Positions 16,219 to 55,951 of a DNA stretch of 55,951 nt are shown piece after piece; the stretch's first letter is position 1, and every line of letters starts with the position of its first letter. The translations under genes were made by a program, and so were the position numbers. The stretch comes from a virus (taxonomy: Duplodnaviria; Heunggongvirae; Uroviricota; Caudoviricetes): positions 1-55,951 of IMG/VR virus record IMGVR_UViG_2690316248_000012; one strand, 5' to 3'. The notes under the pieces are model-generated. The model was not told the origin of the DNA. It worked only from the letters and a program-made list of their open reading frames with translations, and ran no database searches.

Positions 16219-18177
16219 TCAATTAAACTTTACAGGTTTATCACTTATAAAAAAATTTTCAATTTTGGCAATCCACTCTGGCCTTTTCCGCTCATTTCGC
16301 TCACAGATTGAAATATATTCCTTTGAAAAATCAAACTTAATTCCTTCACGGTCAAAAAAAGCATCAAGCGTTTTTTTGTTCTTGGGTGACAAATCCATCG
16401 CAGCAAACGATGAATGTCTTTCATCTATCATAACATTACTATTAGGCAGCAATGCCTGAAGCTCAGGAAAACGTGAAGAAAATGATGTTAAAGCCTCTAT
16501 AAACGATACAGGATTAAGACAATCCTCTATTTCTGTTGCAGGAGAAACTGGATTGGAAGAAATATCAACCAACTTCACTGAATCACCTACACTAACAATT
16601 CGCTTACAAACAACATGCGGCATAACTGGGGTATCATATGACACCAACTCTGAATCTGTATCGGTTAGTAAGAACACTTTTCCTTTGAGGTCTTTTTTGA
16701 ACTCTTCATAAGAAGCTTCTAAATGCTTAAATATTTTTTTAACTTCACTAGCTCCCCCTACAGGCACAATCCTTAGCCTTTTATTTTCTACCAAGTCCTT
16801 TAGATAATGCGAAAGATATATTTTTTCTGTAGTACCCTCACAAATCAACCAATTGTAAGGTTTCTCAGCCAAACAGCTAGATATTATGGATTGTATAAGG
16901 TCATTTACACTTTTTATTTTTATATCAAATGGCATACCCGGGGAAGAGGTTTTTACTTTCTTCCTGACTTCTTCTCTATAACTGGCAAGATCATATAATT
17001 CAAAATGATGAGTTGAATCTGTTTTAAGGATAGTTGTGGTACATCCATTTTCGACGGTTGGAAGATAGCCATACCAATGTGAAGTAAATATTAATTGTTC
17101 ACATATACCACTAATAGAATAGAGCTTTTCAAATTGTTCAAAACATGCAGACATATGAAGAGAACATTCTGGCTCATCAATTCCAATAATCAGATTATCG
17201 CCATTTTCTCTATGATTGGTAAGAAACCCATATGCAATATCCATTATTGCACGTTGCTTCTCCCCTGAACTTAGCGAGCTAATTTCAATCCAACCTGAAT
17301 TCTGCTTTTTATTTAATTTCCTAACTTTGAAGAATGCTTCGATAATCAAATTATAAACATCTTTCTTTTTTAATCGCGATTGTCTCTCGCCAGATGTTCT
17401 ATAACCATATTCTTCAAGCTCCTCTTCAACACCATCCAGAAATTTGGCAAGCCCTGTATTGATTTGACTTATGGTTCTATCAGATATTCTATCTTTAATT
17501 ATCTGCTCTAAAGACTCACCCATCAACTTTTGTACTTCACTTGTTTCTAGCTTCGTAAACGATTCAGAGTCTATATCCTTTGGAATATATATATATTCAT
17601 ACTTATGGCGGACATGATGTAATAAATACCCAAAGTGCTTACTAAGCAACTCGCTCGAAACTTTATTATCGGGATTATCAACCTCCAAAAGTCGACATAA
17701 ACTCTTCCCATTAAGAATCGAAATACTTACATCACCATCTTTCTCGACACCCAGAGGGATCAAAAAATAATCTTGGAGATTTAAATTTCTTTTTAATTTG
17801 TTAATATGTTCAAAAAACGTATTAATTATATTTCGTGTTGTTGGCGTCAATGTAACATCAGCATTACTATTGCTATATTCTAATACTAATTGCGTTAAGA
17901 TTTCAGCTTTAGCATGATGATCTTCATGTAATTCCTCTCGCTTTATAAGATATAAAGGAACAATATGTGGAGAAGGTCTGTCACTGGAGGTTCTTTTAAA
18001 TGAAGAATTAATATTCCATGGTTTGTTATTAATAAACGAATCTAAAGCCTCAAGAACAGAACTTTTGCCAATTCCATTGTTACCAACAATTCCACAAAAC
18101 TGACTTCCAGAAGATAACGGTATGTAATGATTTCCGTTGTATGTTTTAAAATACCTTAAAAAAATCCCTACTATCAT
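16219..18177 (-). CDS. old: OLD-family overcoming-lysogenization-defect nuclease (ABC-type ATPase + TOPRIM), P2 Old-like
   Basis: 652 aa; Walker A GNNGIGKSS, signature LSSGEKQ, Walker B IGIDEPECSLH, H-loop FTSHW, TOPRIM Glu in LICEGTTE and DxD in LLTDTDSE; same motif order as P2 Old; AT-rich gene. Confidence 0.8.
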   Translation of the reverse strand: MIVGIFLRYFKTYNGNHYIPLSSGSQFCGIVGNNGIGKSSVLEALDSFINNKPWNINSSFKRTSSDRPSPHIVPLYLIKREELHEDHHAKAEILTQLVLEYSNSNADVTLTPTTRNIINTFFEHINKLKRNLNLQDYFLIPLGVEKDGDVSISILNGKSLCRLLEVDNPDNKVSSELLSKHFGYLLHHVRHKYEYIYIPKDIDSESFTKLETSEVQKLMGESLEQIIKDRISDRTISQINTGLAKFLDGVEEELEEYGYRTSGERQSRLKKKDVYNLIIEAFFKVRKLNKKQNSGWIEISSLSSGEKQRAIMDIAYGFLTNHRENGDNLIIGIDEPECSLHMSACFEQFEKLYSISGICEQLIFTSHWYGYLPTVENGCTTTILKTDSTHHFELYDLASYREEVRKKVKTSSPGMPFDIKIKSVNDLIQSIISSCLAEKPYNWLICEGTTEKIYLSHYLKDLVENKRLRIVPVGGASEVKKIFKHLEASYEEFKKDLKGKVFLLTDTDSELVSYDTPVMPHVVCKRIVSVGDSVKLVDISSNPVSPATEIEDCLNPVSFIEALTSFSSRFPELQALLPNSNVMIDERHSSFAAMDLSPKNKKTLDAFFDREGIKFDFSKEYISICERNERKRPEWIAKIENFFISDKPVKFN

Positions 18178-18760: not shown

Positions 18761-19184
18761 GTTTCACCGTCCACATTTCTTCAGGTTCATCAGGTTCCGC
18801 TATAGCTTCAACGCTCGACACACTGCCGTCAGTGCTGACCAGCACACGCTCCGTCAGTTGCAGGTTAAGGCTGATATCACAGACATCGTTGCGCAGAATA
18901 TCCACCTCAAAGGTGAATAACTTTTCCCGTAACGCCGGATTATTGATGGCATCGGGCTGGTTATCCCGCAGCCACAGCAAAACCGGGGCCATCAGCAGAT
19001 TCTGGTCGCCGCTGAAATCCTCAATCACCACGTTCAGGGTGTAGCGGTACTCCCATGACATGGAGCTGGCCCCCGTGGCAACCAGCGAACCGTTATCCAC
19101 AAACAGATGCAGTTTGTCCGGGTTATTGCGGACATAAGGCACCGCCTTATTGAGGGCGTGGCGCAGGGATTGTGGTTTGTTCAC
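18753..19184 (-). CDS. R: tail completion protein gpR-like
   Basis: KPQSLRHALNKAV aligns with the P2 gpR N-terminus; start set to the GTG before it (ORF track start 19205). Confidence 0.65.
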   Translation of the reverse strand: MNKPQSLRHALNKAVPYVRNNPDKLHLFVDNGSLVATGASSMSWEYRYTLNVVIEDFSGDQNLLMAPVLLWLRDNQPDAINNPALREKLFTFEVDILRNDVCDISLNLQLTERVLVSTDGSVSSVEAIAEPDEPEEMWTVKRG

Positions 19185-19437
19185 TGTTTCGCTCCTGACA
19201 CGCAATAATCATGTCCACTTTGTCTGCACAGACCGCCCAGGCGGCCTCCGTTTCATCCAACAACGCGTTCAGATCACCGTTAATGCGCGGCGCTGCCTGA
19301 TCCAGCCGACACGGCGTCACTCGCGGACAACCACTGACGGTAAGCTGCACCTCCGGTGAGCGTGGGGCGTTCCCGCAGCCGGATAATGTCAGCAGGCAAA
19401 GGAGTATCAGCCCAGCGGCGTAAATCCTCGTTCTCAC
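19147..19437 (-). CDS. lysC: o-spanin (LysC/Rz1-like outer-membrane lipoprotein)
   Basis: 96 aa; signal peptide with lipobox LTLSGC; overlaps the lysB 3' end in another frame. Confidence 0.75.
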   Translation of the reverse strand: MRTRIYAAGLILLCLLTLSGCGNAPRSPEVQLTVSGCPRVTPCRLDQAAPRINGDLNALLDETEAAWAVCADKVDMIIACQERNSEQTTIPAPRPQ

Positions 19438-19708
19438 GTTTCAGTTCCTCAATCCGGTGTTGTCGTTGTCTCAGCAGTGCGCTGGTCTGTTCTGCGTCGG
19501 CATAGAGCCGCGCCTGCTCCCGGTTGTTGGTTTCAGCCAGAATGGACAGGCTGATAAGCTGGCTGTTGCTCTTTGCCAGTGCCTGGCTTTTGCTCTGCAG
19601 CTCGTCTGCCTGCGTGCTAATGGTCTGGCTGGCATCAGCCAGCCGCCACGTCTGCCAGCCCAGCGCCGCCAGTAATAACGCCAGCACAACCAGCAGCAAC
19701 CGGTTCAT
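19280..19708 (-). CDS. lysB: i-spanin (LysB/Rz-like)
   Basis: 142 aa; N-terminal transmembrane anchor then coiled coil; o-spanin gene overlaps in another frame. Confidence 0.75.
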   Translation of the reverse strand: MNRLLLVVLALLLAALGWQTWRLADASQTISTQADELQSKSQALAKSNSQLISLSILAETNNREQARLYADAEQTSALLRQRQHRIEELKRENEDLRRWADTPLPADIIRLRERPTLTGGAAYRQWLSASDAVSAGSGSAAH

Positions 19709-20001
19709 GCTGCTACCTGTTGCGCCATCTGATTACGGGTGATCCAGAAGGCAATAACGGTCAGTAGATAAAACACCAGGGTAATAGCCCACCCCGTCCA
19801 GGCGAGACTTACAACAATCAGCAATCGCATCACCCAACTGGTAAATACGTTTTCTTTTCGGGTAATTGTCTTCAGCAAAGATGCCCTTAACTCCTGCCAG
19901 AGCGGTCCATTCTTAATTAACGCAGCCAGTGCTACCGGAATTACCGCCCATGTCAGCAAACAGGCTACCCAAACGCCGGACGCTGCCAGTTGATCAGACA
20001 T
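19705..20001 (-). CDS. LysA-like/holin-like small membrane protein
   Basis: 98 aa with two to three hydrophobic helices; immediately upstream of the spanins; shorter than P2 LysA. Confidence 0.5.
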   Translation of the reverse strand: MSDQLAASGVWVACLLTWAVIPVALAALIKNGPLWQELRASLLKTITRKENVFTSWVMRLLIVVSLAWTGWAITLVFYLLTVIAFWITRNQMAQQVAA

Positions 20002-20351
20002 GAGATAAATGAAGGGGGATCCGTGAGATAAATAACGAATTGGAGTGGGTTAACATGGGTTCTGGTGAACAGAACTGAAATTCTTTTCCGCTATACGATA
20101 GATAAGTCGGGCATTGAAATCATCCTTCCTGGCAACTTAGAATCGAGTTTGCTGAAACATGACCCGCAACAAAAAGGATGATTCCAATGACTACTCAAAA
20201 CAATAAGCATGATAGCCTGGATTACTCAGAAAAGCCCAAAAGCAAGCACATCGTGACGTTCGAGCGCGATTCCGGTAGAAAAGGAGAATCGTCTTCCTCT
20301 GCCAATAAAACCACTATGCCGGCAGCCCCTGCCCCAGGGAAAAAATAAACA

Positions 20352-20986
20352 TCATTCATCGTTCGTTGCACGAACGCGCCTGATCTCCACTCTGGCAATC
20401 TGATCTGCTGGAATATAGGTTGCCAGAGCTCCCCAATACTTATCAACCACGCCTTTATACTCTTCCCATTCGTTACTGCCTGAAGGGCTGCTGTGCGTGA
20501 CGTAAAGAACCATATCGCCTTTATTCCCCAGGGTAAACGGACCGTTAGGCCACTCTTCAAAATTCCCTGGCAGCCGTGACATCATACCGGAACCATCGCG
20601 AAGAATCACTCTGACCTCGGTAACGCTGAAGCCTGTTTGATCAAACATTGCCTGCCATGCTGAGCTGGTATCGTCAGACCATGAAATATCATTATTCCAC
20701 AGTAATCTGTACATCCATTTGCGACCGTACCTGCGCCACCACGCACCGCATGTAACGGCACACAGAAGTGCTGGTGGTGTTGCCAGCCAGGCATTCAGAC
20801 CTGCCCACATAACAGCCTGGTAAGCCATCATTGCCGTCAGGCCAAAAATCAGCGAAGAAAAAGTCACCTCAATGGGCTTGTGGTGATCCTTCAGTCCCAC
20901 ATTCGCAATAAAATACCCAATATAGCCACTGGTCAGGGTCACCAGTGTTGCCCATGGCAGATTTAACAACGAAACGTCAAACATAT
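20352..20986 (-). CDS. membrane protein of unknown function (N-terminal transmembrane helices, C-terminal soluble domain)
   Basis: Start trimmed to MFDVSLL with GGAG 7 nt upstream (ORF track start 21062); no recognisable catalytic motif. Confidence 0.5.
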
Positions 20987-21098
20987 TTTCTCCCTGTATC
21001 CTGAATACTACAGAGAGAGCATAAAAAAAGCACGGTAAGGGGTCTACCGTGCTTTTATACAATAAGGGGATTTTTGAAAGGACTTTAACAAGCAGGAA

Positions 21099-21497
21099 TT
21101 ATCTGGATTTGTTAACGTCTCTCGTCTCCTCCGGCAGATCTTCATCAAATAACCTGCCCTGCATCCGATCCAGTTCTTCTTTTCTGACCCGCTTAACCAC
21201 GCTGTAGACCCACTGAAGCGAAACACCAAACTTGCGGGCCAGTTCATGGTGGTTACGTCCGTTAAACTCCCTGAATATTTCCCGGTCGCGCTGACTGACC
21301 TTCCATACCATGCCCATCGGGAAATAAACGTTTTGCCCGCCCCAGACCTGCATCATGCGGTTCGCGACGGCCTGACCAATCTGGTCGGCAATTGCGGGCT
21401 CAATATCAATAATCTCGCGAACGGTCTCAGAGGTATGCTGTGCCAGTTCCACCAGGAGTTCCGGCCCTTTACTTCGAAACTGATTCAGGTCGCTCAT
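21099..21497 (-). CDS. mor: Mor/C-family transcriptional activator
   Basis: 132 aa; follows gemA as in Mu; C-terminal HTH region (HELARKFGVSLQWVYSVV). Confidence 0.7.
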   Translation of the reverse strand: MSDLNQFRSKGPELLVELAQHTSETVREIIDIEPAIADQIGQAVANRMMQVWGGQNVYFPMGMVWKVSQRDREIFREFNGRNHHELARKFGVSLQWVYSVVKRVRKEELDRMQGRLFDEDLPEETRDVNKSR

Positions 21498-21918
21498 GTT
21501 TTACTCCTGCAGCTCTGCGCTGCCACTTCTTCAGTTTCTCAATAACACTGCTTGCCTGTTCAGTACTGAGCCAGCGCAGAGCGCTGATGTCCGTTTCCCG
21601 CTTGATCCACCGCGCTAATGCATTTTCTGAACGGTCACGAACAATGCCGGCAGCAGCCATTTCAAGCCATAGTGCACGGATTTTCCTGGACTGCGGATGG
21701 TTATCCAGCGGTAAACCGGAGCTGGCTTTTCCGGCAGGCTTAACGCGAAAGCCTTTCTTTTTCATGGACTCAAGCACGCAGTTTAGTTGTGTGATATCCA
21801 TTACTTTGGTTGAGGCCTTACCAGTCAGCCCCTGTAACACCTGGCGGTAGGTGTCTTCATCCATACCCAGTTCATTACGGGCAATATGGATAAGCTGAAT
21901 CAGTCGTTTTTTCTGCAT
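21469..21918 (-). CDS. gemA: GemA-like regulatory protein (Mu gp16 family)
   Basis: 149 aa; position immediately upstream of mor; basic C-terminal region. Confidence 0.6.
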   Translation of the reverse strand: MQKKRLIQLIHIARNELGMDEDTYRQVLQGLTGKASTKVMDITQLNCVLESMKKKGFRVKPAGKASSGLPLDNHPQSRKIRALWLEMAAAGIVRDRSENALARWIKRETDISALRWLSTEQASSVIEKLKKWQRRAAGVKHERPESVSK

Positions 21919-24298: not shown

Positions 24299-24829
24299 TT
24301 ACTGCACATCCTGCTCAAAAGGAATTATTGAAAAATCCTCAATGTCGCTTTTAATGGAAATACCGGGAATATTTTTCACGGCCTCTTTTTCATTCAGGAT
24401 AGCGTCTTTATTTATTTCCTCTTTTACACGAATAAAGCGCTCAAGCCCCAGACGTCTCAGTAATTCAATAACATTATCCGCCCCACGGATACTGACTGAT
24501 GGCGGACGGTTTCGCCACTGCACCTCGCCGGTGGTGAGGTTAGCGAACTTCACCTTCCCGTTGCCGGTCAGTTCATCACGGTGTGCCTCACACCATGTCT
24601 GAATACCGGACTGCAGTTCGGCCATGCGTTTTTTCAGGCTCTCGGTGAGCGGGGCATAACGTGCGGTGATATCGCCAATGGCGTCATTCATTTCTGTTTC
24701 AGCCCTGACCAGTTCACGTTGTGCGTCACCGAGTAGTCTGATTCCCTCAATGACCTCTTCACGTGTCCCCGGCACCCAGAGTGCTGCTGCGGCCTTGATA
24801 CGTTTTGCACCTTTTGTACTTTTTGCCAT
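24299..24829 (-). CDS. gam: host-nuclease inhibitor Gam (Mu Gam family, DNA-end binding)
   Basis: 176 aa; strongly alignable by eye to Mu Gam (ETEMNDAI, WCEAHRDELT, RPPSVSIRG, GIEDFSIIPFEQ). Confidence 0.9.
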   Translation of the reverse strand: MAKSTKGAKRIKAAAALWVPGTREEVIEGIRLLGDAQRELVRAETEMNDAIGDITARYAPLTESLKKRMAELQSGIQTWCEAHRDELTGNGKVKFANLTTGEVQWRNRPPSVSIRGADNVIELLRRLGLERFIRVKEEINKDAILNEKEAVKNIPGISIKSDIEDFSIIPFEQDVQ

Positions 24830-25128: not shown

Positions 25129-26322
25129 TTAAACCCCTTTGACAACGTCAGCGTTGACCTGTGGAACCCCGATTTCAGCGGCCAGATTCATGGCGGCTAT
25201 TACCAGGTTACTGACGGCCAGCGGATACAGCAGGCTGACCATATTTTTACGGTGACTTCCCGGATTGCTCAGGCGGGCACGTATGGCATCCACTGCACCG
25301 GCGTCCATAATGTCCGTCAGCTGTTTACCGGCCCGTTGCAGTTTGAACGTCAGAAATTCTTCAAGGTTATTGTCCAGAGGCAGAAGTTCGACCACCTCAC
25401 AGCGCTGAACGACTTCACGGACTTCCATATTGCGTTCAGACAGTTTTGTCGCCAGTTCCGGCTGGCCAATCAGCACGATGGACAGCAGTTTTTTGAAACC
25501 GGACTCCAGCTCAAAAAAGCGTTTGAGGTGTTTCAGTGTCGGAATGGGCAGACTGTGGGCCTCCTCAATCACCAGAACGTGGCTGAACCCCGCCTGGCTG
25601 CTGTCTTTCAGGACGCGATGCAACTGGCGAAAGCGGGCGTCCTGACTGCGTCTGATGCTTTCCAGTGGTGCGATGGTACTGATAATGGCTTCGGCAATCG
25701 CTGCTGCCTTCAGGGTTTTCCCTTTCACATCGTTGTCTTCCATAGCGATGATGTATGGCTCGATAACAATTACCGGCGCATTCTCGCGGTTGATACGTTC
25801 AGTCAGGTCGCGGCGCAGCGTGGATTTACCCGCACCGGACTCACCGATGACGGCCATAAACCCACCATGACGGGCTGTCTGGTACAACGCCTCACGCACG
25901 TAGCGAATGTCCGGGGTGGTGAACACATCATCAGAACCCTGCATGGCTTCATCGGCGAACGGGTCACGGAAAAGACCAAACGCTTTTTTGGTTGCTGGAA
26001 ATAACACCTGTTTTTTGAGTAACATATTCTCTTCCTCACTGAGGCTCGTTTTATCTGTGGTACCCGCTGTACGGGGCGTGGCTGCGCCCTGTACAGCATC
26101 AAAACTCTTCGTTGTATCAATCCCCTGACTTTCCAGCCAGGACGCAAGACGCCGGCGCACTTCTCCGGGGCTGGTGCGGGGCCACGCGTTATGATTCACA
26201 ATCTGGGCCAGCGTGGCCTCAGAAACATCGACAGCTCTCGCCACCACCGCCTGTGGAATACGGGCCTCTTTCAGTTGCTGCTTCAGTACCAGCATGTTTC
26301 CCTCCTCAGTTGCCGTTAACAA
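25129..26322 (-). CDS. transposition ATPase (MuB/TniB-like AAA+ protein)
   Basis: 397 aa; Walker A GESGAGKST, Walker B VLVIEEAHSL; N-terminal HTH; directly downstream of the transposase. Confidence 0.8.
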   Translation of the reverse strand: MLTATEEGNMLVLKQQLKEARIPQAVVARAVDVSEATLAQIVNHNAWPRTSPGEVRRRLASWLESQGIDTTKSFDAVQGAATPRTAGTTDKTSLSEEENMLLKKQVLFPATKKAFGLFRDPFADEAMQGSDDVFTTPDIRYVREALYQTARHGGFMAVIGESGAGKSTLRRDLTERINRENAPVIVIEPYIIAMEDNDVKGKTLKAAAIAEAIISTIAPLESIRRSQDARFRQLHRVLKDSSQAGFSHVLVIEEAHSLPIPTLKHLKRFFELESGFKKLLSIVLIGQPELATKLSERNMEVREVVQRCEVVELLPLDNNLEEFLTFKLQRAGKQLTDIMDAGAVDAIRARLSNPGSHRKNMVSLLYPLAVSNLVIAAMNLAAEIGVPQVNADVVKGV

Positions 26323-28075
26323 TGCTGATAACGCTGCTGCGGGCCGGTGTGGTCAGCGTGGCCATGACTTCATCCAGTGCGGCTTCCGGTACGCCGTCCG
26401 GGTACTGTGCCGTTAACTGGCGGTAATGTTCCGGCGTCCAGGTAAGGCCGTCGGTGCTGAACTTATCGCGCAGGGCTTTCGCGGCCTCCACATGAGTCAT
26501 GGGACGTTGTTCAGTGCGCGGCCCGCGTACGTCAGAGGCCTGACCACGCTTCGGCATATAGGCCGGAAGTGTGGTGTCGTCGATATGTTTATACGGGTCA
26601 AGCCGCCCGCCGAACGGCAGCGCCTTCGCCTTGCGTGCGGCGGCTGCATCTGCGGCGTTGTCTGTACCGGTAACCAGCGCTTCGGTTTCTTTTGCCGCCA
26701 TCTGTGCCGGGGTTTCCGGCAGGGCTTTGTAACTTTCGCCAAATACCGCCGCGCCTTCAGCAAAGCCAAACTCGTTCTTTCTGACCTCTTCGACCAGGAA
26801 GAACGTCTCGTGGCCGTCCTCACCAGTCAGAACCACCTGTGCCACATCGCTGCGCCATGGGTTACGGGTAATCATCAGTTTTTCACCAACCAGTACGCCC
26901 GGTACCGTTGATACGTCAAATTCAGTGCCCCGGAACGAGACACGAAGTTTTGGCGTGACTTTGCGGAGTTCTGGTGCCGCCACAGCCAGTTCACGACATA
27001 CCTTAACGGAAGGCGCTTTTTTCAGCTGCTCAGCAGTAATCTTCAGCCAGATATCCGTGCGGGTTTTACCGTGGCGGCTGTGAACAGCCGTGGCGTTAAA
27101 GTGGCTGCGCCATTTCGCGGCCAGCGCGTTGAGTTCTTCCAGACTGTGAACCGGCCGGAACTTCAGACCCGGCTCCAGCTTGCGTTCGATAATGTCACGC
27201 GCCTTTTCCACCTGTCCGGTGGCGCGGGCGTTATGCGGCTTGTGCGCTATCAGGTCGATGCCCAGTGAGCGGCACATGTTTTTCGTCATACCCGCGGTGT
27301 TTGCCGAGCCGGGGTCGAGATAGAGTATTTTCGGCACGCCGTGCAGCACGTCTGCGCCGCCACGCTCCTGCATGGCGTTGATAAGCACAGAACACAGGTT
27401 CTCACCTGATTCCGCGCCCGTCACATACTCAACGTAAATCCAGCCGCTGGCATGGTCGGTAATCTCGTAACTCCACACGCGGTCACTGGCGATACGGGCA
27501 AGGTTAGCGGGCTTGTTCTTGTAGAACTTCGCGCTGTCCATCACCTGCAGCCCTTTATGTCCATTGCTCAGGTAGTAAAGCGTGCAGAGTGAGGCGTCAA
27601 TCTGCCAGACATGATTGGGATGCAGACTGGCCACTTCGGTATGTGGTGCAGGGGCATCCAGTTGTTCCGGGTGCAGGCCATAGTTACGCAGAGCACGGCT
27701 GATGGCATCTTCAGACAACGGGAAAAACTCACCGGTGGTTTCATCTGTTCTGCCTGCGGTGATAAAGCCGTTAGCCCGCAGGGTTTCCACTGCATCTGCG
27801 ATGGAATAGAGACGCTTACCGTTCTTGCGGGTGGCCTCACGCAGTGTGGCAGATATCAGCGCGGCTTCGTCGCGGGTCAGGGCGCTGCGCCCGGCATCGG
27901 CGCGTTTTTTGCGTTTATCAGTCACAGATACCTCCTTCAGCCTGCGCAGCAGAGTGGCGCGGGACATGCCAAGTTCAGCACAGGCAGCGTCGTATATTGC
28001 ACCGCGTTTACCATGCCCCGCGTCACGTGCCGCGCGGGCTGTTTCAACCAGTTTTTCAGTCAGTGCCGGGGTCAT
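26306..28075 (-). CDS. DDE transposase (Mu A-like, integrase-core fold)
   Basis: 589 aa; N-terminal HTH, catalytic core with HVWQIDAS and YLDPGSAN motifs; upstream of the AAA+ partner. Confidence 0.8.
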   Translation of the reverse strand: MTPALTEKLVETARAARDAGHGKRGAIYDAACAELGMSRATLLRRLKEVSVTDKRKKRADAGRSALTRDEAALISATLREATRKNGKRLYSIADAVETLRANGFITAGRTDETTGEFFPLSEDAISRALRNYGLHPEQLDAPAPHTEVASLHPNHVWQIDASLCTLYYLSNGHKGLQVMDSAKFYKNKPANLARIASDRVWSYEITDHASGWIYVEYVTGAESGENLCSVLINAMQERGGADVLHGVPKILYLDPGSANTAGMTKNMCRSLGIDLIAHKPHNARATGQVEKARDIIERKLEPGLKFRPVHSLEELNALAAKWRSHFNATAVHSRHGKTRTDIWLKITAEQLKKAPSVKVCRELAVAAPELRKVTPKLRVSFRGTEFDVSTVPGVLVGEKLMITRNPWRSDVAQVVLTGEDGHETFFLVEEVRKNEFGFAEGAAVFGESYKALPETPAQMAAKETEALVTGTDNAADAAAARKAKALPFGGRLDPYKHIDDTTLPAYMPKRGQASDVRGPRTEQRPMTHVEAAKALRDKFSTDGLTWTPEHYRQLTAQYPDGVPEAALDEVMATLTTPARSSVISIVNGN

Positions 28076-29981: not shown

Positions 29982-30338
29982 ATGAGCAAAGATATAGGAG
30001 AGCGCGTTATTTCTGTGAGGAAGAAAGCAGGGTTGAACCAGAGAGAATTTGCAGCTCGTTTAGGTATTTCTAATGGTGGTATCAGTCAGATTGAAAATGG
30101 AAAGGCGATGCCTGGAGGGGAGTTTCTGTTAAAGATGCATCAAGAGTTTAATGTTGATGTAAATTGGTTGCTCACTGGAATGAGCACAGATGGTATGACT
30201 AGAAACCAGAATCAAATTTCCCCAGAAAAACAAAAACTAATAGATACTTTTGACGACATGACACCAGACCAACAACGCTCATTTCTTGAGATTGGGCGAT
30301 TCTATACTCAGCCAAAACCAGGAAAAATCGCAGGCTGA
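29982..30338 (+). CDS. XRE-family HTH repressor (phage c repressor-like)
   Basis: 118 aa; N-terminal HTH QREFAARLGISNGGISQIENG; divergent from ner. Confidence 0.75.
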   Translation: MSKDIGERVISVRKKAGLNQREFAARLGISNGGISQIENGKAMPGGEFLLKMHQEFNVDVNWLLTGMSTDGMTRNQNQISPEKQKLIDTFDDMTPDQQRSFLEIGRFYTQPKPGKIAG

Positions 30339-30454: not shown

Positions 30455-31219
30455 TCAGAAGTTGCAGATTAGCAGTTCACGGCGCGGCGTGGGTTTACCC
30501 GCCAGACTGTAGTTGATATTCACTGTCTGTATGTTCAGTCCAGTGAACACCTCGCGCATCTGCGGGATGTCGTTCACCGAAATTATCATTTTTCCTCTGA
30601 TGCACCGGGCCAGCTCTGCCAGCCGCGAGTAGTTCCCTTCAGGAAAATCCACACCATAGCCTTCCGTACCCAGGTACGGTGGGTCGCAGTAGAACAGCGT
30701 GTGCGGACGATCATAACGCTCAATGCACTGTTGCCAGTCCATGTGTTCTATGACTGTTCTGGAAAGCCGCAGGTGTGCCGCTGACAGTTCTTCTTCAATA
30801 CGTAGCAGGTTGAAGCGTGGCGGGGATGTGGTGGAGGTACCGAAGCTGTGCTCTGCCACCTTGCCGCCAAACGCCTGCTTCTGAAGGTAGTAGAACCGTG
30901 CCGCACGCTGGATATCCGTCAGTGTTTCTTCCGGGGTGATCTGCAGCCATTTGTAGATCTGACGGCTGACCAGCGCCCATTTGAACTGGCGGACAAATTC
31001 TTCCAGGTGATGCTTTACCACCCGGTACAGATTCACCAGTTCACCGTTGATATCATTGATGACTTCGATCTTGCCGGGTGTCTTAAGAAAATAGAGCGCT
31101 GCTGCCCCACAAAACGGCTCCACATAACATTCATGCGCCGGAAACAGCGGCAGAATGTGTTTTGCAAGGCGGCGTTTGCCACCAATCCATGGAACGATGG
31201 GTAATGTCTGCATTTTCAT
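30455..31219 (-). CDS. dam: DNA adenine methyltransferase (Dam-like, D12 class N6-adenine MTase)
   Basis: 254 aa; FCGAAA AdoMet motif near N-terminus and DPPY catalytic motif. Confidence 0.85.
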   Translation of the reverse strand: MKMQTLPIVPWIGGKRRLAKHILPLFPAHECYVEPFCGAAALYFLKTPGKIEVINDINGELVNLYRVVKHHLEEFVRQFKWALVSRQIYKWLQITPEETLTDIQRAARFYYLQKQAFGGKVAEHSFGTSTTSPPRFNLLRIEEELSAAHLRLSRTVIEHMDWQQCIERYDRPHTLFYCDPPYLGTEGYGVDFPEGNYSRLAELARCIRGKMIISVNDIPQMREVFTGLNIQTVNINYSLAGKPTPRRELLICNF

Positions 31220-32555: not shown

Positions 32556-32906
32556 ATGAAAAAACTCACCTCCCTTATCGCAGACGTACAAAAAACCCGC
32601 CTGCGTGGCTGGCTTGTTGCCGCCGTACTGCTGCTCCTCATCATCGCGCTGGTCTCACCCCAGCAGTTGCCGGTGGTGGTGTACAAGCTCTCTCTCATCT
32701 CCCTCGCCGCCGTGCTCGGCTACTGGCTGGACCGCTCACTCTTCCCGAAGGCCCGTCCGGGGCAGTACCTGAAGCATGACGAGCGCCTCATGGCTGAGGG
32801 GCGCTGGCCCGTACAGACCGGCCTTCACCTGGTGTTTTCTGCTGCGTTAATCCGCCGTGCACTGATTGTTGCAGCTGTCTGTCTGGCTGTTGCGATGGGG
32901 CTTTAA
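32556..32906 (+). CDS. holin-like membrane protein
   Basis: 116 aa, three hydrophobic helices; first gene of the late operon, upstream of endolysin. Confidence 0.5.
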   Translation: MKKLTSLIADVQKTRLRGWLVAAVLLLLIIALVSPQQLPVVVYKLSLISLAAVLGYWLDRSLFPKARPGQYLKHDERLMAEGRWPVQTGLHLVFSAALIRRALIVAAVCLAVAMGL

Positions 32907-32908
32907 TC

Positions 32909-33643
32909 ATGAACTGGCCACAGAGCACCTGGATTGTATGCATGTCCCTGAAACTGGCTTTCGAAGCCTTTCTGGTCTTCATCAGAACCGAACGCCTGTC
33001 AGTCCGCGCCGGGACCTTTCTGGTTCATATGGCATGGGTATTCTTTGTCGCAATGTTGCTCTGGTGTGGCGGCTTCTTCAGTCAGGCCCGCGCAGCGCAG
33101 CCTCCGCAGGCTGCGCTGCAGTATCGCGATGATGTGATCCGTAATGCCCGGCTTGAATGGGGGCTGTCTGCGCCGGTGGCCGATTTCGCCGCGCAACTGC
33201 ATCAGGAAAGCGGCTGGCGGACTGATGCGGTCTCGCCGGTGGGCGCTCAGGGGCTGGCGCAGTTTATGCCCGCCACCGCTGACTGGATAAGCCAGTTGAT
33301 GCCGGCGTTGAGCAGTCGTGAGCCGTTTAATCCGGCATGGGCCATCCGGGCGCTGGTCAGCTATGACCGCTGGCTGTGGCAGCGCATCAGCGCCGCCAGT
33401 GACTGCGAGCGTATGGCCATGACACTGTCGGGCTATAACGGTGGTCTGGGTTGGGTACAACGGGACAGGCGGCTCGCATCACAGAAAGGTCTGGACAGCA
33501 CCCGCTGGTTCGGACATGTCGCCACGGTGAATGCCGGACGCAATGCTGCCAGCTGGCGGGAGAACCGCCATTATCCGCAGCGCATCCTGCACGAACTGGC
33601 CCCCCGTTATCTGACATGGGGGGGCGGCAGCTGTGTGGACTAA
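32909..33643 (+). CDS. endolysin, lytic transglycosylase (SLT domain), with N-terminal hydrophobic segment
   Basis: LHQESGWRTDAVSPVGAQGLAQFMPATA catalytic Glu-Ser motif; true start may be internal. Confidence 0.75.
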   Translation: MNWPQSTWIVCMSLKLAFEAFLVFIRTERLSVRAGTFLVHMAWVFFVAMLLWCGGFFSQARAAQPPQAALQYRDDVIRNARLEWGLSAPVADFAAQLHQESGWRTDAVSPVGAQGLAQFMPATADWISQLMPALSSREPFNPAWAIRALVSYDRWLWQRISAASDCERMAMTLSGYNGGLGWVQRDRRLASQKGLDSTRWFGHVATVNAGRNAASWRENRHYPQRILHELAPRYLTWGGGSCVD

Positions 33644-36985: not shown

Positions 36986-38481
36986 TGGCAAAAGGTATCT
37001 GGGTTTCACCCGATGAGTTCGTGGCGTTTGCCGAACCCAAAAAGTCACTGACCGCGCAGATTGCCTCCCGCAGCCGCGCCATCGACTTTTACGCTCTGGG
37101 AATGTACCTGCCCAACCCTGATCCCATTCTCAAGGCTCAGGGACGGGATATCCGTATCTACCGCGAACTGCGCACCGACCCGCTGGTCGGGGGCTGTATC
37201 CGCAGACGTAAAGCAGCGGTCAAATCGCTGGAACGTGGACTGGAGCGCGGTCACGCTTCTGCCCGGGTCTTCCGTTTCATCCGCGACATGCTCGACGATC
37301 TGGATCTGTCCCGCATCATCGGTGAGATGAGCGATGCCGTGCTCTACGGGTATCAGCCCTGTGAAATCATGTGGGGCCGTTCGGTCAGGGCGTGGACGGT
37401 GACGGATATTGTCGGCAAACCGCCTGAGTGGTTTCAGTTTGATACGGACAACTGCCTGCGCTTCCGGGCTCGTGATGCGGGTGTGGAGGGTGAGCTGCTG
37501 TCACCGTCAAAATTCGTGGTGCCGGCACAGGATGCCTCGTATGACAATCCTTACGGTTTCCCGGACCTGTCCATGTGCTTCTGGCCGGTCGCCTTCAAGA
37601 AAGGCGGGATGAAATTCTGGCTCCGCTTTGCCGAAAAGTTTGGCTCCCCCTGGGTCATCGGTAAGCACCCGAGGGGTGCAAATGATGCAGAGATTGAAAA
37701 ACTGCTGGACTCCATGGAGCAGATGGTGGAGGACGCGGTGGCCGCCATCCCTGATGACAGCAGCATCGAACTCAAAGCAGCGGATGGCAAGGCGGACAGC
37801 AGCGAGGTATTCCGCGAGCTGATCACACTGTCACGCAGTGAGATCTCCATTGCATTACTCGGTCAGAATCAGACCACGGAAGCGAACAGTAACAAGGCCT
37901 CTGCACAGGCCGGGCTGGAGGTGACGGCTGATATCCGCGATGCGGATGCGGACATCATTCAGGCGGCAGTGAATCAGGTCATAAGAACGGTGGTCACCCT
38001 GAACTTCGGCGATGTGCCGTGTCCGGTCTGGGCCATGTGGGAACAGGAGGCCATTGATGACACCCGTGCCACCCGCGATGAAAAACTCACCCGGGCGGGT
38101 CTGCGTCTGACCCCGCAATACTTCAAGCGTGAGTACCAGCTGCAGGACGGCGATATTGACGAGACACCACCGTCAGAATGCGAGAAGAACATGCTGCCGC
38201 TGTCATTTGCCGAGGCGATTGATGCCGATATTCAGGCTCAGCAGCAGCTTGACGACGCGCTGGACATTCTGATGAACGGAGGTGTGTTAAATGGCACGCT
38301 GGAACCCGTCCTGGCACCTCTGTTCAGACGGGTCGAAAACGGGGTTAACCCGTCTGAGCTGCTGGGCGAACTGGCGGAGCTCTACCCTCAGATGAACACG
38401 GACGATCTGCAGGAGCGGCTGGCCCGCATTCTCTTTGTGGCAAATATCTGGGGGCATCTGCATGAGCGTGACAACGGCTGA
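36985..38481 (+). CDS. portal protein (Mu gp29-like)
   Basis: 498 aa following the terminase. Confidence 0.7.
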   Translation: MAKGIWVSPDEFVAFAEPKKSLTAQIASRSRAIDFYALGMYLPNPDPILKAQGRDIRIYRELRTDPLVGGCIRRRKAAVKSLERGLERGHASARVFRFIRDMLDDLDLSRIIGEMSDAVLYGYQPCEIMWGRSVRAWTVTDIVGKPPEWFQFDTDNCLRFRARDAGVEGELLSPSKFVVPAQDASYDNPYGFPDLSMCFWPVAFKKGGMKFWLRFAEKFGSPWVIGKHPRGANDAEIEKLLDSMEQMVEDAVAAIPDDSSIELKAADGKADSSEVFRELITLSRSEISIALLGQNQTTEANSNKASAQAGLEVTADIRDADADIIQAAVNQVIRTVVTLNFGDVPCPVWAMWEQEAIDDTRATRDEKLTRAGLRLTPQYFKREYQLQDGDIDETPPSECEKNMLPLSFAEAIDADIQAQQQLDDALDILMNGGVLNGTLEPVLAPLFRRVENGVNPSELLGELAELYPQMNTDDLQERLARILFVANIWGHLHERDNG

Positions 38482-39283
38482 ACTGGCGTACTGCATGACG
38501 CTTCCCCCGAAGCGGGCAGTCAGCTACCTGAAGTCCAAAGGGTATCAGATTACCTGGGACCAGGAAGAAATGTGGCAGGAAGCCCATGCCCGCGCCTTTA
38601 CCGTCGCTAAAGTGACCCGCCTGGATATTCTGGAAGATATTCGCGGGACACTGCAGCAGGCTGTTGATGAAGGAAAAACCGATCGCTGGTTCCGGCAGGA
38701 GCTGGAGCCGGCGCTGAAGCGCAGGGGATGGTGGGGACCGCGTGACACGACTGACCCGGTAACGGGTGAGCCGGTCACCATTCAGCAGGGCAGTCCGTGG
38801 CGGCTCGATACCATCTTTCGCACCAATATGTCCGTACTCTACAGCGCCGGTCGTTGGGCGGAGCAGATGGAAAACGTCGACGACAGGCCGTACTGGATGT
38901 ATACCGGCATCAACGACAGCCATACCCGCAGGAGCCATCTGGCGCTGCATGGTCTGGTGCTGCGCTGGGATGACCCGTTCTGGCAGGCATTTTACCCGCC
39001 GAACGGCTGGCGCTGCCGCTGTAGTGTAATTGCCCTGAGTGCGGCGGATGTACGTGCCCGTGGCCTGAAGGTTATCAGCTCCGGCTCTGCCATGGGCCAG
39101 GAACTGAAACTGGTCTCAGAGAAAACCGGCGAAATGCGGAACGTGGCCACCTTTAATACCGGCACCACGAAGGTGACCACCGACGTCGGCTGGTCTTATG
39201 CACCGGGGGCAGCATACCGTCCCGACCTGGCCCGCTATCAGGGTACGCTTCAGACACTGGCACAACAGGAACTGAGAGGATAA
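38462..39283 (+). CDS. head morphogenesis protein (Mu F / SPP1 gp7 family)
   Basis: FYPPNGWRCRCSV motif characteristic of the family. Confidence 0.8.
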   Translation: MSVTTAELAYCMTLPPKRAVSYLKSKGYQITWDQEEMWQEAHARAFTVAKVTRLDILEDIRGTLQQAVDEGKTDRWFRQELEPALKRRGWWGPRDTTDPVTGEPVTIQQGSPWRLDTIFRTNMSVLYSAGRWAEQMENVDDRPYWMYTGINDSHTRRSHLALHGLVLRWDDPFWQAFYPPNGWRCRCSVIALSAADVRARGLKVISSGSAMGQELKLVSEKTGEMRNVATFNTGTTKVTTDVGWSYAPGAAYRPDLARYQGTLQTLAQQELRG

Positions 39284-39285
39284 CA

Positions 39286-39744
39286 ATGGCTTCCGATAAC
39301 CTGGTCAGTATCACCATTAATGATAAATCCCTGCGCCGGAGCCTCCGTGCGCTGGATCTTGCTGCCACAGACCTGGAGCCCGCGATGCGCAAAATCGCCG
39401 GAACCCTGCTGGCGGAAACACAGTTTAACTTTCTTGATGAGGGGCGTCCGGGGTGGATGCCCTCGCTGGCAGCGGAAGAACGTGACGGGCAGACACTGCA
39501 GGATACCGGGCGTCTGATGGGGTCAGTATCAACCGACCATGACGACCGGCAGGCTGTTGTGGGGACCAACGTTGTTTACGGTGCCATTCACCAGTTCGGG
39601 GGTAAAACGGGGCGTAATGAGTCTGTTGAACTTCCGGCCCGCCCGTTCCTGCCGGTGACGGGGGATGGAGAACTACAGCCTGAAGTGGTAATCCCCATCC
39701 TCGATACCATTGTCCGCCATCTTGAATCAGCGGCCCGTCGCTGA
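39286..39744 (+). CDS. virion morphogenesis protein (Mu G-like)
   Basis: 152 aa, position after F. Confidence 0.55.
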   Translation: MASDNLVSITINDKSLRRSLRALDLAATDLEPAMRKIAGTLLAETQFNFLDEGRPGWMPSLAAEERDGQTLQDTGRLMGSVSTDHDDRQAVVGTNVVYGAIHQFGGKTGRNESVELPARPFLPVTGDGELQPEVVIPILDTIVRHLESAARR

Positions 39745-53923: not shown

Positions 53924-54494
53924 GCCATTACAACTCCCGCCACCGCTTGAGGGTGATATCAGTCTCAGGACGCTGGGAAGACTGGCAGGGCGGCTGGATA
54001 ACATCGACCTGAGCGTACTGATGGTCTTTCTCGTCGATATCGTCGACAGTTCTGCGCTGCCATGGCTGGGCGAGCAGTTCTCACTGTCTGGCGATGGCTG
54101 GGAGCTGGCGGAATCGGACGATGTTCGCCGCATGCTTATAAAAGCAGCCATCGAACTACACCGGTATAAAGGGACGCCGTGGTCAATCCGGGAAGTTATC
54201 CGCCGTTTTGGCTTTGGTGAAGTGGATCTGATTGAAGGCACAGGTCGTCTCAGTTACGACGGCAATCGCAGCTATAACGGACTGTTTGTTCATGGAGATG
54301 CAGCCGCCTGGGCGGTTTATCGCGTTATTCTGAAACAGCCCATTACTAACGATCAGGCCGCGATGCTGCGTCAGACGCTCGCTGCATTTGCACCGGCCCG
54401 CTGCCATCTGGCCAGCCTGGAGTATCAGTCTGTGGCCATTCGCTATAACAATACCGCCATCCATGATGGCAGTTATAACCACGGGAGCAGTTGA
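53904..54494 (+). CDS. baseplate/tail protein gpI-like
   Basis: 196 aa between J-like and the fibre gene. Confidence 0.6.
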   Translation: MECLMTEPLQLPPPLEGDISLRTLGRLAGRLDNIDLSVLMVFLVDIVDSSALPWLGEQFSLSGDGWELAESDDVRRMLIKAAIELHRYKGTPWSIREVIRRFGFGEVDLIEGTGRLSYDGNRSYNGLFVHGDAAAWAVYRVILKQPITNDQAAMLRQTLAAFAPARCHLASLEYQSVAIRYNNTAIHDGSYNHGSS

Positions 54495-54496
54495 TT

Positions 54497-55951
54497 ATGG
54501 GAAACCTGAATGAAACAGAAAAGTGGGAAGAAAAAATCTATCAACTGGAGACATCAGATCCGGTTCTGGGTGGTGCTGACGGGATATCAAATCGAGCCCC
54601 CCGGCAACTGGCAAACAGGACGAAATGGCTGAAGAAAAAAACGGAGGAAGCCGCACAGTCACTGGCTGAACACGTACGTTCCCGTAACCACCCGGACGCG
54701 ACACTGACAGCTAAGGGGTTCACCCAACTGAGCAGTGCCACCAACAGCACCTCTGAAACGCTGGCCGCCACACCAAAGGCCGTCAAGGCTGCATATGACC
54801 TAGCTGCCGGCAAGGCCCCCGTCAGCCACACTCACCCGTGGAGTCAGATAACGGGAGTGCCTGCTGCCTCGCTGACGGCAAAAGGCACCGTACAACTGAG
54901 CAGCGCCACGGACAGTCAATCAGAAACTGAGGCTGCCACGCCGAAGGCTGTGAAAATCGCGTATGATCTGGCCCGGGGAAAATACACAGCCCAGGATGCA
55001 ACAACGACCCGTAAAGGGATCGTACAACTGAGCAGTGCCACCAACAGCACCTCTGAAACGCTGGCCGCCACACCAAAGGCCGTCAAGGCTGCATATGACC
55101 TGGCTGCCGGCAAGGCCCCCGTCAGCCACACTCACCCGTGGAGTCAGATAACGGGAGTGCCTGCTGCCTCGCTGACGGCAAAAGGCACCATACAATTGAG
55201 CAGTGCCATCAACAGCACGTCTGAAATACTGGCCGCCACACCGAAAGCGGTCAAGGCTGCATACGATCTGGCAAACGGAAAACAACCGGCAGATGCCACG
55301 CTCACTGCTCTGGCAGGACTTGCCACTGCAGCAGATCGGTTGCCTTATTTTACCGGAGCAGACCGCGCAGCGCTGGCAACCCTTACAGCTATTGGTCGCG
55401 CTATTATCGCTAAGGGCAGTATAAAAGATGTCCTCAATTACCTTGGTTTAGGAGAAGGCTCGGCGCTACCCGTTGGTGTGCCTGTTCCGTGGCCCACCGC
55501 CACACCGCCAGCAGGCTGGTTAAAGTGCGACGGGCGCGCCTTTACAAAAGAACAATATCCTGTTCTGGCCAGAGTCTACCCGACCCTCCGTCTTCCCGAT
55601 TTACGCGGTGAGTTTATCCGTGGATGGGACGACGGGCGCAAAGTTGATACAGGACGTTCATTGCTAAGTGGTCAGGCTGCAACATTTATTCGTACAGCTT
55701 TGCAGGATTATTACGGTTACGATCTGAATACTAATGTCAAAGTAGGTATCGCTTTTGCTACTGCTGATTCTGTTATAACCGTTGGAAACCCAGCTAATCC
55801 TAAAGCAGGAAATAATAGCGATTATGTTCCTGCATCAGCAGATAACTCTATAACGGGTATTCAAAGGACAGCGGAGGATAATTTTACCGGGGCATGGATA
55901 TCAATGCGCCCCCGCAATGTTGCGTTTAATTACATCGTAAGGGCCGCATAA
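54497..55951 (+). CDS. tail fibre protein with internal repeats and crossover-site-containing C-terminus
   Basis: Repeated TAKGxxQLSSATNSTSET / ATPKAVKAAYDLA motifs; C-terminal GLGEGSALPVGVPVPWP...NVAFNYIVRAA matches the alternative fibre segment at 10798-11194. Confidence 0.8.
   Translation: MGNLNETEKWEEKIYQLETSDPVLGGADGISNRAPRQLANRTKWLKKKTEEAAQSLAEHVRSRNHPDATLTAKGFTQLSSATNSTSETLAATPKAVKAAYDLAAGKAPVSHTHPWSQITGVPAASLTAKGTVQLSSATDSQSETEAATPKAVKIAYDLARGKYTAQDATTTRKGIVQLSSATNSTSETLAATPKAVKAAYDLAAGKAPVSHTHPWSQITGVPAASLTAKGTIQLSSAINSTSEILAATPKAVKAAYDLANGKQPADATLTALAGLATAADRLPYFTGADRAALATLTAIGRAIIAKGSIKDVLNYLGLGEGSALPVGVPVPWPTATPPAGWLKCDGRAFTKEQYPVLARVYPTLRLPDLRGEFIRGWDDGRKVDTGRSLLSGQAATFIRTALQDYYGYDLNTNVKVGIAFATADSVITVGNPANPKAGNNSDYVPASADNSITGIQRTAEDNFTGAWISMRPRNVAFNYIVRAA
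54728..55190. repeat. two near-identical ~160-bp copies spaced 300 bp apart inside the tail fibre gene
   Basis: ctgagcagtgccaccaacagcacctctgaaacgctggccgccacaccaaaggccgtcaaggctgcatatgacct... at about 54728 and 55028. Confidence 0.8.
55443..55458. repeat. crossover-like site (ttggtttaggagaagg) inside the tail fibre gene
   Basis: Same core as the inverted repeats at 10779-10793 and 12558-12572. Confidence 0.6.

Follow-up and report, generated by a model that had tools for sequence, protein, structure and literature searches.

A two-gene accessory cassette at the end of a BcepMu-type prophage inserted in lysA of a P2-like prophage

Introduction

Phage morons encoding inner-membrane exclusion proteins are classical, and HK97 gp15 is one example. 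Morons of the HK97 gp15 type were reportedly described by the Hendrix and Davidson laboratories. Cap15, an effector of the cyclic-oligonucleotide-based anti-phage signalling system (CBASS), and similar effectors combine transmembrane (TM) helices with a small β-barrel. The core of MscS contains three TM helices and an Sm-like middle β domain, and the barrel of this domain forms a heptameric ring. Fold-back inhibition of externally initiated transcripts was reportedly described for IS10/Tn10 by Davis, Simons and Kleckner in 1985. In the Pseudomonas Mu-like phage Fc02, olg1 and gene 10 are small prophage-expressed proteins that exclude superinfecting phages (PMC9936078). Here we analyzed positions 20,002 to 20,986 of a tailed-phage sequence (Caudoviricetes; IMG/VR record IMGVR_UViG_2690316248_000012). 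The whole stretch of 55,951 nucleotides (nt) is called the window below. The interval carries two genes, one for a membrane protein of 210 amino acids (aa) and one for a small protein of 53 aa, which together we call the cassette.

Results

A BcepMu-type prophage is inserted in lysA

The window was aligned with STIN_95, an E. coli with a Mu-like element in gcl, and with 4LV2017, a P2-like Klebsiella phage. Homology to 4LV2017 ended at 19990 and homology to STIN_95 began at 19991. Positions 19600-19990 matched P2-like Klebsiella phages at 98%, and the whole interval 20002-20986 was on the Mu-like side of the junction. A megablast search of 19600-21600 against 5426 complete E. coli genomes matched ~19985-21600 at ~98.8% identity in 114 genomes. 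The gene on the far side of the junction varied among these 114 and included gcl, mdfA, kefF, ptsP, rstB, irp1, yodD and others.

The gene order in 4LV2017 is gpX, holin, endolysin, a lysA-like gene (intact, 125 aa), lysB, R and S, and the match of the window ended 92 nt before it would have reached the start of the lysA-like gene. The P2 block inside the window consisted only of truncated lysA, lysB, lysC and the P2 genes gpR and gpS. The truncated lysA is a 98-aa open reading frame (ORF) that has lost its first ~31 codons and takes its ATG (19999-20001) and first three codons from the Mu-like end. It is a chimeric lysA remnant, because the N-terminus of the profile is absent and the ATG lies inside the inserted element. 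No full-length match to the LysA profiles NF038378 and phrog_162 was obtained for this ORF. A native small membrane protein was rejected as its identity, as the start codon comes from the Mu-like end.

The mobile element opens with 5'-TGATCAGACATGAGATAAATG at 19991. Two direct repeats, TGAGATAAAT, are located at 20001-20010 and 20024-20033 and are presumed to be transposase-binding sites. The end sequence was kept in seven enterobacterial loci and in Eco889, a variant without the cargo. At the far prophage end, seen in STIN_95, CATTTATCGC(A/G)C repeats are the inverse of the GTGAGATAAATG repeats of the left end, and the element ends have a 5'-TG...CA-3' structure. The complete element in STIN_95 is ~39 kb long and is flanked in gcl by a GTCAGG target duplication. 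This duplication was read in STIN_95; the window's own other end lies outside the window. The element thus combines the early gene set, unrelated insertion sites, inverted terminal repeats and a short duplication, which are the features of a transposable (Mu-like, BcepMu-type) prophage.

These results indicated that a BcepMu-type transposable prophage sits in lysA of a P2-like prophage. The P2 block lacks an endolysin because the insertion cut off the upstream holin, the endolysin and the 5' end of lysA. All three are presumably on the far side of the inserted phage, past the edge of the window. The insertion would be polar on lysB, lysC, R and S, and the P2-like prophage is probably inactivated or crippled by it.

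A sequence-only reading of this DNA had proposed a junction of a Mu-type and a P2-type phage, and the breakpoint alignment bore this out. The junction is at 19990/19991 and not, as had been thought, at the membrane-protein gene. The same reading had taken the locus for a fused phage whose lysis cassette has no endolysin. Its description of the P2-type lysis block holds within the window; it fails as a property of a phage, since the upstream part was cut off by the insertion. The gene order inside the window, taken alone, would suit a genuine Mu/P2 hybrid phage that has no endolysin in its lysis cassette and a membrane protein in place of K/Y or C. However, one and the same Mu-like end abuts many different host genes, lysA is interrupted mid-gene, and a Mu-like prophage is also found separately, in complete form and equipped with lysis genes. 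The junction was therefore made by a transposition event and not by fusion; the hybrid is refuted, and we give it practically no chance. Two further assignments fell with it. The region 20002-20186, described as a spacer, is the terminal repeat region of the transposable prophage. The membrane protein does not occupy the slot of P2 K/Y or Mu C; its gene is cargo that only some prophages of the lineage carry, placed between mor and the prophage end. A Mu C-type activator was rejected as the identity of the protein.

The cassette is optional cargo shared by unrelated mobile elements

The mor-gemA segment of this lineage was found in 640 of the 5426 E. coli genomes, and the interval 20040-20990 in 119-133 of them. 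The cassette is thus missing from ~80% of the prophage lineage. Of the complete E. coli genomes, ~2% carry it, ST131 and ABU 83972 strains among them. In Eco889, which is the commonest variant, the prophage end is ~160 bp past mor, and only the terminal ~100 bp are common to the window. This precise absence defines the cassette as ~0.95 kb placed between mor and the transposase-binding end. Its G+C content is 0.46-0.51, only slightly under that of the neighboring early genes, so composition gives no sign of foreign origin.

The pair recurs in Enterobacterales, in a metagenomic HK97-like siphophage (L032) and in resolvase-linked elements of Bradyrhizobiaceae. In the siphophage it lies among the structural genes, with the head-tail connector on one side and head closure on the other. 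The pair therefore travels as a unit between unrelated mobile elements. Its patchy presence, the small gene's own conserved promoter and the terminator that separates mor from the cassette are features of a phage moron; for the 210-aa gene, a promoter was not identified. The cassette is an uncharacterized two-gene accessory module at the end of a Mu-like phage.

The versions in Afipia and Bradyrhizobium have additional neighbors. A conserved gene of 156-160 aa is located 3-16 nt upstream of the small ORF (L028, 4509-4991; L007, 6802-7272; L031, 568-1050), and its product had no Pfam or PHROG match. A serine recombinase gene, intact or fragmentary, is located just upstream of the membrane-protein gene. 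The system in these genera may consist of three genes.

The small gene encodes a conserved, disordered peptide

The sequence-only reading had noted the plus-strand small ORF with an AGGA ribosome-binding site and had called it antisense. The ribosome-binding site is there, as AAGGA at 20174-20178, and the ORF is a real, conserved gene (Table 1). Its stop codon and that of the 210-aa gene are 3 nt apart on opposite strands, so the two genes are convergent and non-overlapping, and the ORF is not antisense to a gene. An alternative start (ATG at 20178) would give 56 aa.

Conservation of the ORF had been proposed as a check, and it was conserved beside membrane-protein homologues in at least 13 further loci. 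At loci whose membrane-protein homologues were 40-70% identical, a convergent ORF of 45-57 codons was found 0-12 nt from the stop codon of the main gene. Such pairs were present in Klebsiella, Citrobacter, Serratia (two copies), Symbiopectobacterium, Salmonella, Bradyrhizobium and Afipia, and further in S. marcescens, the HK97-like siphophage and Afipia-type metagenome contigs. The window's small protein reads MTTQNN..LDYSE.PKS at its N-terminus and PAAPAPGKK at its C-terminus. Common features of the peptides are an N-terminal MT(T/N)(Q/K)N, a YSE.PK-like motif and a C-terminal PPxP..KK tail. A profile of the peptide retrieved only 27 clusters of 45-71 aa, all from the same taxa and all annotated "hypothetical". 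The 53-aa protein had no Pfam, NCBIfam or PADLOC match. AlphaFold2 predicted no secondary structure (predicted template modeling score, pTM, 0.14). The protein is hydrophilic, with 75% disorder-promoting residues and a net charge of +4.

The transcripts of the convergent genes would overlap, no terminator was seen between the stop codons, and the peptide is of low complexity as well as disordered. These points would suit a small ORF that is not translated but belongs to a conserved antisense or 3'-untranslated-region RNA, or to a terminator, for the 210-aa gene. However, the reading frame stays open, with in-frame indels, across the at least 13 diverged loci. Between the two copies in Serratia sp. 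Ag1, the proportions of synonymous (pS) and nonsynonymous (pN) change were 0.69 and 0.23 (dN/dS ratio, omega, 0.145), so that synonymous change per site was three times nonsynonymous change. The Shine-Dalgarno (SD) sequence, the ATG and the promoter were conserved, and the N- and C-terminal peptide motifs are common from Enterobacterales to Bradyrhizobiaceae. An explanation by RNA is therefore most improbable, and the substitution pattern argues for a genuine protein gene under purifying selection.

The 210-aa protein is a predicted inner-membrane protein with a C-terminal β domain

The minus-strand ORF had been described as 211 aa long with N-terminal TM helices and an unrecognized C-terminal domain. 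The ORF is real and has a ribosome-binding site, but its length is 210 aa. Three hydrophobic helices (~11-28, 37-60 and 65-83/97), followed by a basic juxtamembrane stretch, and a folded domain confirmed the rest of the description. In the AlphaFold2 model (mean predicted local distance difference test score, pLDDT, 85), the helices span 11-28, 37-60 and 65-97, and a β-rich domain spans 119-205. Residues ~119-205 were modeled as an Sm/SH3-like β-barrel. Hydropathy, together with the RRYGRK stretch that follows the third helix, predicts an N-out/C-in topology in which the C-terminal domain is cytoplasmic.

The protein matched phrog_12870 end to end. It had no Pfam, NCBIfam or PADLOC match and no PDB sequence-profile match below E 0.6. 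Neither of the two proteins matched known anti-phage defense systems in PADLOC-DB v2 at E ≤ 0.1. A word-indexed search gave 72 homologues in Enterobacterales, Bradyrhizobium and Sphingomonadales. DUF6338 (PF19865) was weakly matched by 20 of 39 homologues (best E 1.4e-6); one listed match scored 23.4 bits against a gathering threshold of 26.5, and the window's own protein had no DUF6338 match at E ≤ 1. This points to a family that is a distant sister group or relative of DUF6338. Membership itself would not explain anything, as no function is known for DUF6338. The literature on DUF6338, on the RefSeq accessions of both proteins and on Bcepmuvirus in E. coli was searched and had nothing on these genes, and the KS10 paper did not yield a usable account of the gene order in BcepMu.

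A profile search of 1.84 billion representative proteins retrieved 522 clusters, nearly all of 200-215 aa with full-length matches (~520 clusters for the membrane protein when counted at 50% identity). Longer family members had no recognizable extra domain and no domain fusions. A Foldseek search of BFVD gave one significant full-length match, itself an uncharacterized viral protein.

Two distant homologues were seen in unusual settings. The sole tblastn match in the phage collection was in Synechococcus phage Ssp-JY41 (L013, positions 1-744; 29% identity), where the gene is at the extreme end of a 20-kb record labeled as a complete genome. In Allosphingosinicella (L010, 9756-11371), a homologue carries an Ala/Pro/Ser-rich C-terminal extension and is ~1 kb from a DUF4411 and Peptidase_M78 gene pair, possibly a defense-island neighborhood. 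The convergent small ORF at that locus is short (33 codons) and doubtful.

Two outcomes would have spoken against the earlier view of this protein, a signal-anchored endolysin and a standard holin, and neither was found. A signal-anchor-release endolysin was rejected, as no muralytic catalytic domain was present. A standard holin was also rejected: there was no holin match in Pfam or PHROG, and Foldseek matches of the TM part to holins in BFVD had E values of 0.02-0.1 and were not significant. The three-TM topology itself is compatible with a holin. A role as an accessory holin- or antiholin-like factor in lysis or its timing, with expression after mor in lytic growth, would account for the position downstream of mor, for these weak matches, and for the three TM helices, predicted N-out/C-in orientation and basic juxtamembrane segment, which resemble class I holins. 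However, the phage already has a Holin_2-3 holin beside its SLT endolysin 12 kb away, most of the prophage lineage lacks the 210-aa gene, and the gene also occurs in non-phage elements. The folded 110-aa cytoplasmic domain is a further point against a lysis role, which we consider very unlikely.

The three TM helices with an Sm-like cytoplasmic domain loosely recall MscS-type channels. An MscS-type channel as such was rejected, as no MS_channel domain was found. The resemblance, the moron-like distribution and the cassette's own promoter would fit a lysogenic-conversion pair that alters host physiology as a channel, a transporter or a stress factor and has no role in conflict between phages. 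We regard this as quite unlikely.

Transcription and translation signals

Both hexamers of the sigma-70-type promoter of the small ORF were kept in all 7-8 enterobacterial loci, despite diverged flanks. A hairpin nearer the prophage end could stop read-in transcription. The terminator hairpin between mor and the 210-aa gene was in the same place, with a different sequence, in all enterobacterial loci. The siphophage and Afipia versions were also scanned for promoters, without an informative result. Expression of the 210-aa gene may depend on read-through of this terminator, on Mor or on an unrecognized promoter.

The -35 region of the promoter forms a long-range inverted repeat with the SD sequence and the ATG of the small ORF. 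In an alignment of seven loci, 82% of cells were paired versus 26-51% in slid controls, and three pairs had compensatory changes. The promoter's own transcript starts inside the loop, so only read-in transcripts hold both arms. The fold-back would thus hide the ribosome-binding site of the small ORF in read-in transcripts only.

The β-barrel domain and the small gene vary together

In Serratia sp. Ag1, two contigs of one genome (L015 and L016) contain two Mu-like ends, and thus two cassette alleles are present in one cell. Identity between the two copies was 96-100% in mor, the TM domain, the promoter and the prophage end, but only 55-80% in a stretch that begins near codon 120 of the main gene and takes in most of the small ORF. 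The synonymous rate (dS) climbed from 0.12 to 0.80 and 1.9, and omega was ~0.15 throughout, which points to a recombination tract and not to positive selection. Among eight enterobacterial loci, whose pairs are not independent, identity of the small protein correlated with identity of the barrel (rho 0.71) and not with that of the TM domain (rho -0.42). Recombination thus exchanges the barrel domain together with the small gene, and the two behave as one unit. Such co-exchange is consistent with a cognate interaction or with mere adjacency.

A possible role in exclusion or abortive infection

A superinfection-exclusion or abortive-infection role, which the sequence-only reading had thought plausible for a gene at this place, remains the most plausible candidate reading of the cassette. 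We propose that the cassette is a prophage moron whose small protein would be made constitutively in the lysogen, with the fold-back insulating the small gene from outside transcription. The small protein may bind or regulate the cytoplasmic barrel, possibly via its PxxP-K tail. Once released or activated, the membrane protein would oligomerize and disturb the inner membrane, and the prophage would gain from the resulting superinfection exclusion, abortive infection or addiction. We lean slightly towards this reading as a whole, namely an insertion in lysA together with a moron cassette that encodes a membrane effector and its small partner.

Several findings weigh against it. Neither protein has homology to characterized proteins in PADLOC, Pfam, NCBIfam or PDB sequence searches. 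The 210-aa gene sits behind a terminator, and it has no convincing sigma-70 promoter and no motif shared with the late (holin) promoter region. Covariation in the fold-back is modest (24 of 500 shuffles), and part of the pairing is dictated by the promoter and SD/ATG sequences. The co-variation of barrel and small ORF could reflect physical adjacency only, and the docking of the PxxP tail on the barrel is pure inference. In two symbiont genomes (L018 and L019), the main gene is intact and the small ORF is lost.

This loss also argues against strict toxin/antitoxin dependence. A toxin-antitoxin-like module that serves addiction alone would stabilize the prophage or mobile element and have no anti-phage function, with the membrane protein as toxin and the constitutively made, disordered small protein as its labile antidote. 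Constitutive promotion and disorder of the small partner, the movement of the pair as one among mobile elements and the joint exchange of barrel and small gene would all be expected of such a module. However, the convergent layout is atypical of a type II operon, in which the genes are co-transcribed and the antitoxin is always kept; L018 and L019 keep the main gene alone; and toxicity of the membrane protein is an assumption. We consider pure addiction unlikely.

A more specific form of the exclusion proposal is a two-component defense or exclusion system that hops between mobile elements. Its ring-forming Sm/SH3-like barrel would serve as a pore or depolarizing effector, the proline-tailed peptide would be the gate, and the specificity region of this peptide would be swapped together with the barrel. 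This is possible but rather unlikely.

Other features of the window

The early operon of the Mu-like phage comprises the repressor region, DDE transposase, MuB-like ATPase, Gam, GemA and Mor, and the same order is annotated in STIN_95. It is read leftward, towards this prophage end; mor is its last core gene, and gemA adjoins it. A helix-turn-helix (HTH) repressor gene and a Dam-like methylase gene are located mid-element, where they adjoin each other at a divergent control region. The rightward late region comprises the holin, the SLT endolysin, head genes, a P2-like tail and an invertible fiber segment. RefSeq annotates the pair of holin and SLT endolysin in STIN_95 as well. The relative PhiKM is classified as Bcepmuvirus. 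The window stops within a fiber gene (54491-55951). Past its right end, STIN_95 (37116-39400) contains inverted tail-fiber and fiber-assembly gene fragments and a serine recombinase, which make up a Mu G-segment-like invertible host-range region.

On the P2 side, a 652-aa ATPase-TOPRIM protein is encoded between P2 gpS and gpV. It had AriA as its best PADLOC model (1e-21) and matched Old too. The gene is in an AT-rich island (G+C content 0.31-0.36 versus ~0.55 in the flanks) and is probably a defense gene in a P2 cargo hotspot. The coordinates of the features are listed in Table 1.

Table 1. Features around the prophage junction and in the Mu-like and P2-like parts of the window
Feature	Position	Strand	Evidence or detail
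652-aa ATPase-TOPRIM protein gene	16219-18177	-	AAA_15 and OLD-like TOPRIM
lysC, P2-type spanin overlapping lysB	19147-19437	-	Pfam LysC, E 2e-13
lysB, P2-type spanin	19280-19708	-	phrog_89, E 9e-46
lysA, truncated and chimeric, P2-type, 98-aa ORF	19705-20001	-	NF038378 positions 32-124/124; phrog_162 positions 31-135/141
Terminal end of BcepMu-type prophage	19991-20100		starts 5'-TGATCAG; breakpoint homology
Hairpin then T-rich run, candidate terminator against read-in from flanking DNA	20058-20076	+	consensus scan only
Long-range inverted repeat, -35 region with SD and start codon of small ORF	20112-20127 with 20174-20189	+	16-nt arms, 94% complementary
Sigma-70-type promoter of small ORF	20114-20143	+	TTGAAA, 18-nt spacer, TAGAAT; 10/12 consensus positions
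Small gene, 53 aa	20187-20348	+	phrog_15726, E 1e-41; RefSeq WP_001571575.1
210-aa inner-membrane protein gene, MFDVSLLNLPW...	20352-20984	-	GGGAG ribosome-binding site
Intrinsic terminator between mor and 210-aa gene	21026-21056	-	13-bp stem then T-run
mor, Mor/C-family late activator	21099-21497	-	Pfam Mor, E 1e-43
Gam (Phage_Mu_Gam)	24299-24829		profile match
MuB-like ATPase (AAA_22)	25129-26322		profile match
DDE transposase (rve)	26306-28075		profile match
HTH_3 repressor-like gene	29982-30338	+	
D12-class (Dam-like) adenine methyltransferase	30455-31219	-	
Holin of Mu-like phage	32556-32906	+	Pfam Holin_2-3, E 1.7e-41
SLT-domain endolysin of Mu-like phage	32909-33643	+	Pfam SLT, E 1.5e-13

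Discussion

The apparent hybrid without an endolysin is an ordinary outcome of one prophage landing in another. The lasting value of the analysis is a clean definition of an uncharacterized two-gene cassette with signs of partner co-variation. If the cassette is a defense, exclusion or addiction module, it would be a new family in the prophage-encoded conflict repertoire and would give a first function to the neighborhood of DUF6338. A neat regulatory detail is that a fold-back apparently protects a cargo gene at the end of an element that inserts at random.

The cassette resembles the HK97 gp15-type morons in being optional, in being bracketed by transcription signals, in having its own promoter and in encoding an inner-membrane protein. 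Like them, it is placed at operon ends or, in the siphophage, between structural genes. There is no sequence or structural similarity to these morons, and the cassette consists of two convergent genes, one of them for a disordered peptide. A second parallel is offered by olg1 and gene 10 of Fc02, which show that accessory functions of this kind exist in Mu-like phages at a distance from the structural genes (PMC9936078). The Fc02 genes differ in being in the repressor region and overlapping instead of convergent, and they have no homology to the cassette.

DUF6338 is, like the 210-aa family, an uncharacterized membrane family of similar size with an N-terminal TM region. Cap15 shares the order of N-terminal TM helices followed by a compact cytoplasmic barrel, which may be a ligand- or partner-binding switch for membrane disruption. 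The MscS core likewise has three TM helices in N-out/C-in orientation, the topology predicted for the 210-aa protein, followed by an Sm-like barrel.

The closest regulatory parallel is IS10. The fold-back of the cassette differs in that it would protect a cargo gene and not a transposase, and its basis is conservation and limited covariation. In both elements, a ribosome-binding site pairs with sequence that precedes the element's own start of transcription, and this would silence read-in transcripts only. Such silencing of read-in makes sense because the element inserts at random sites.

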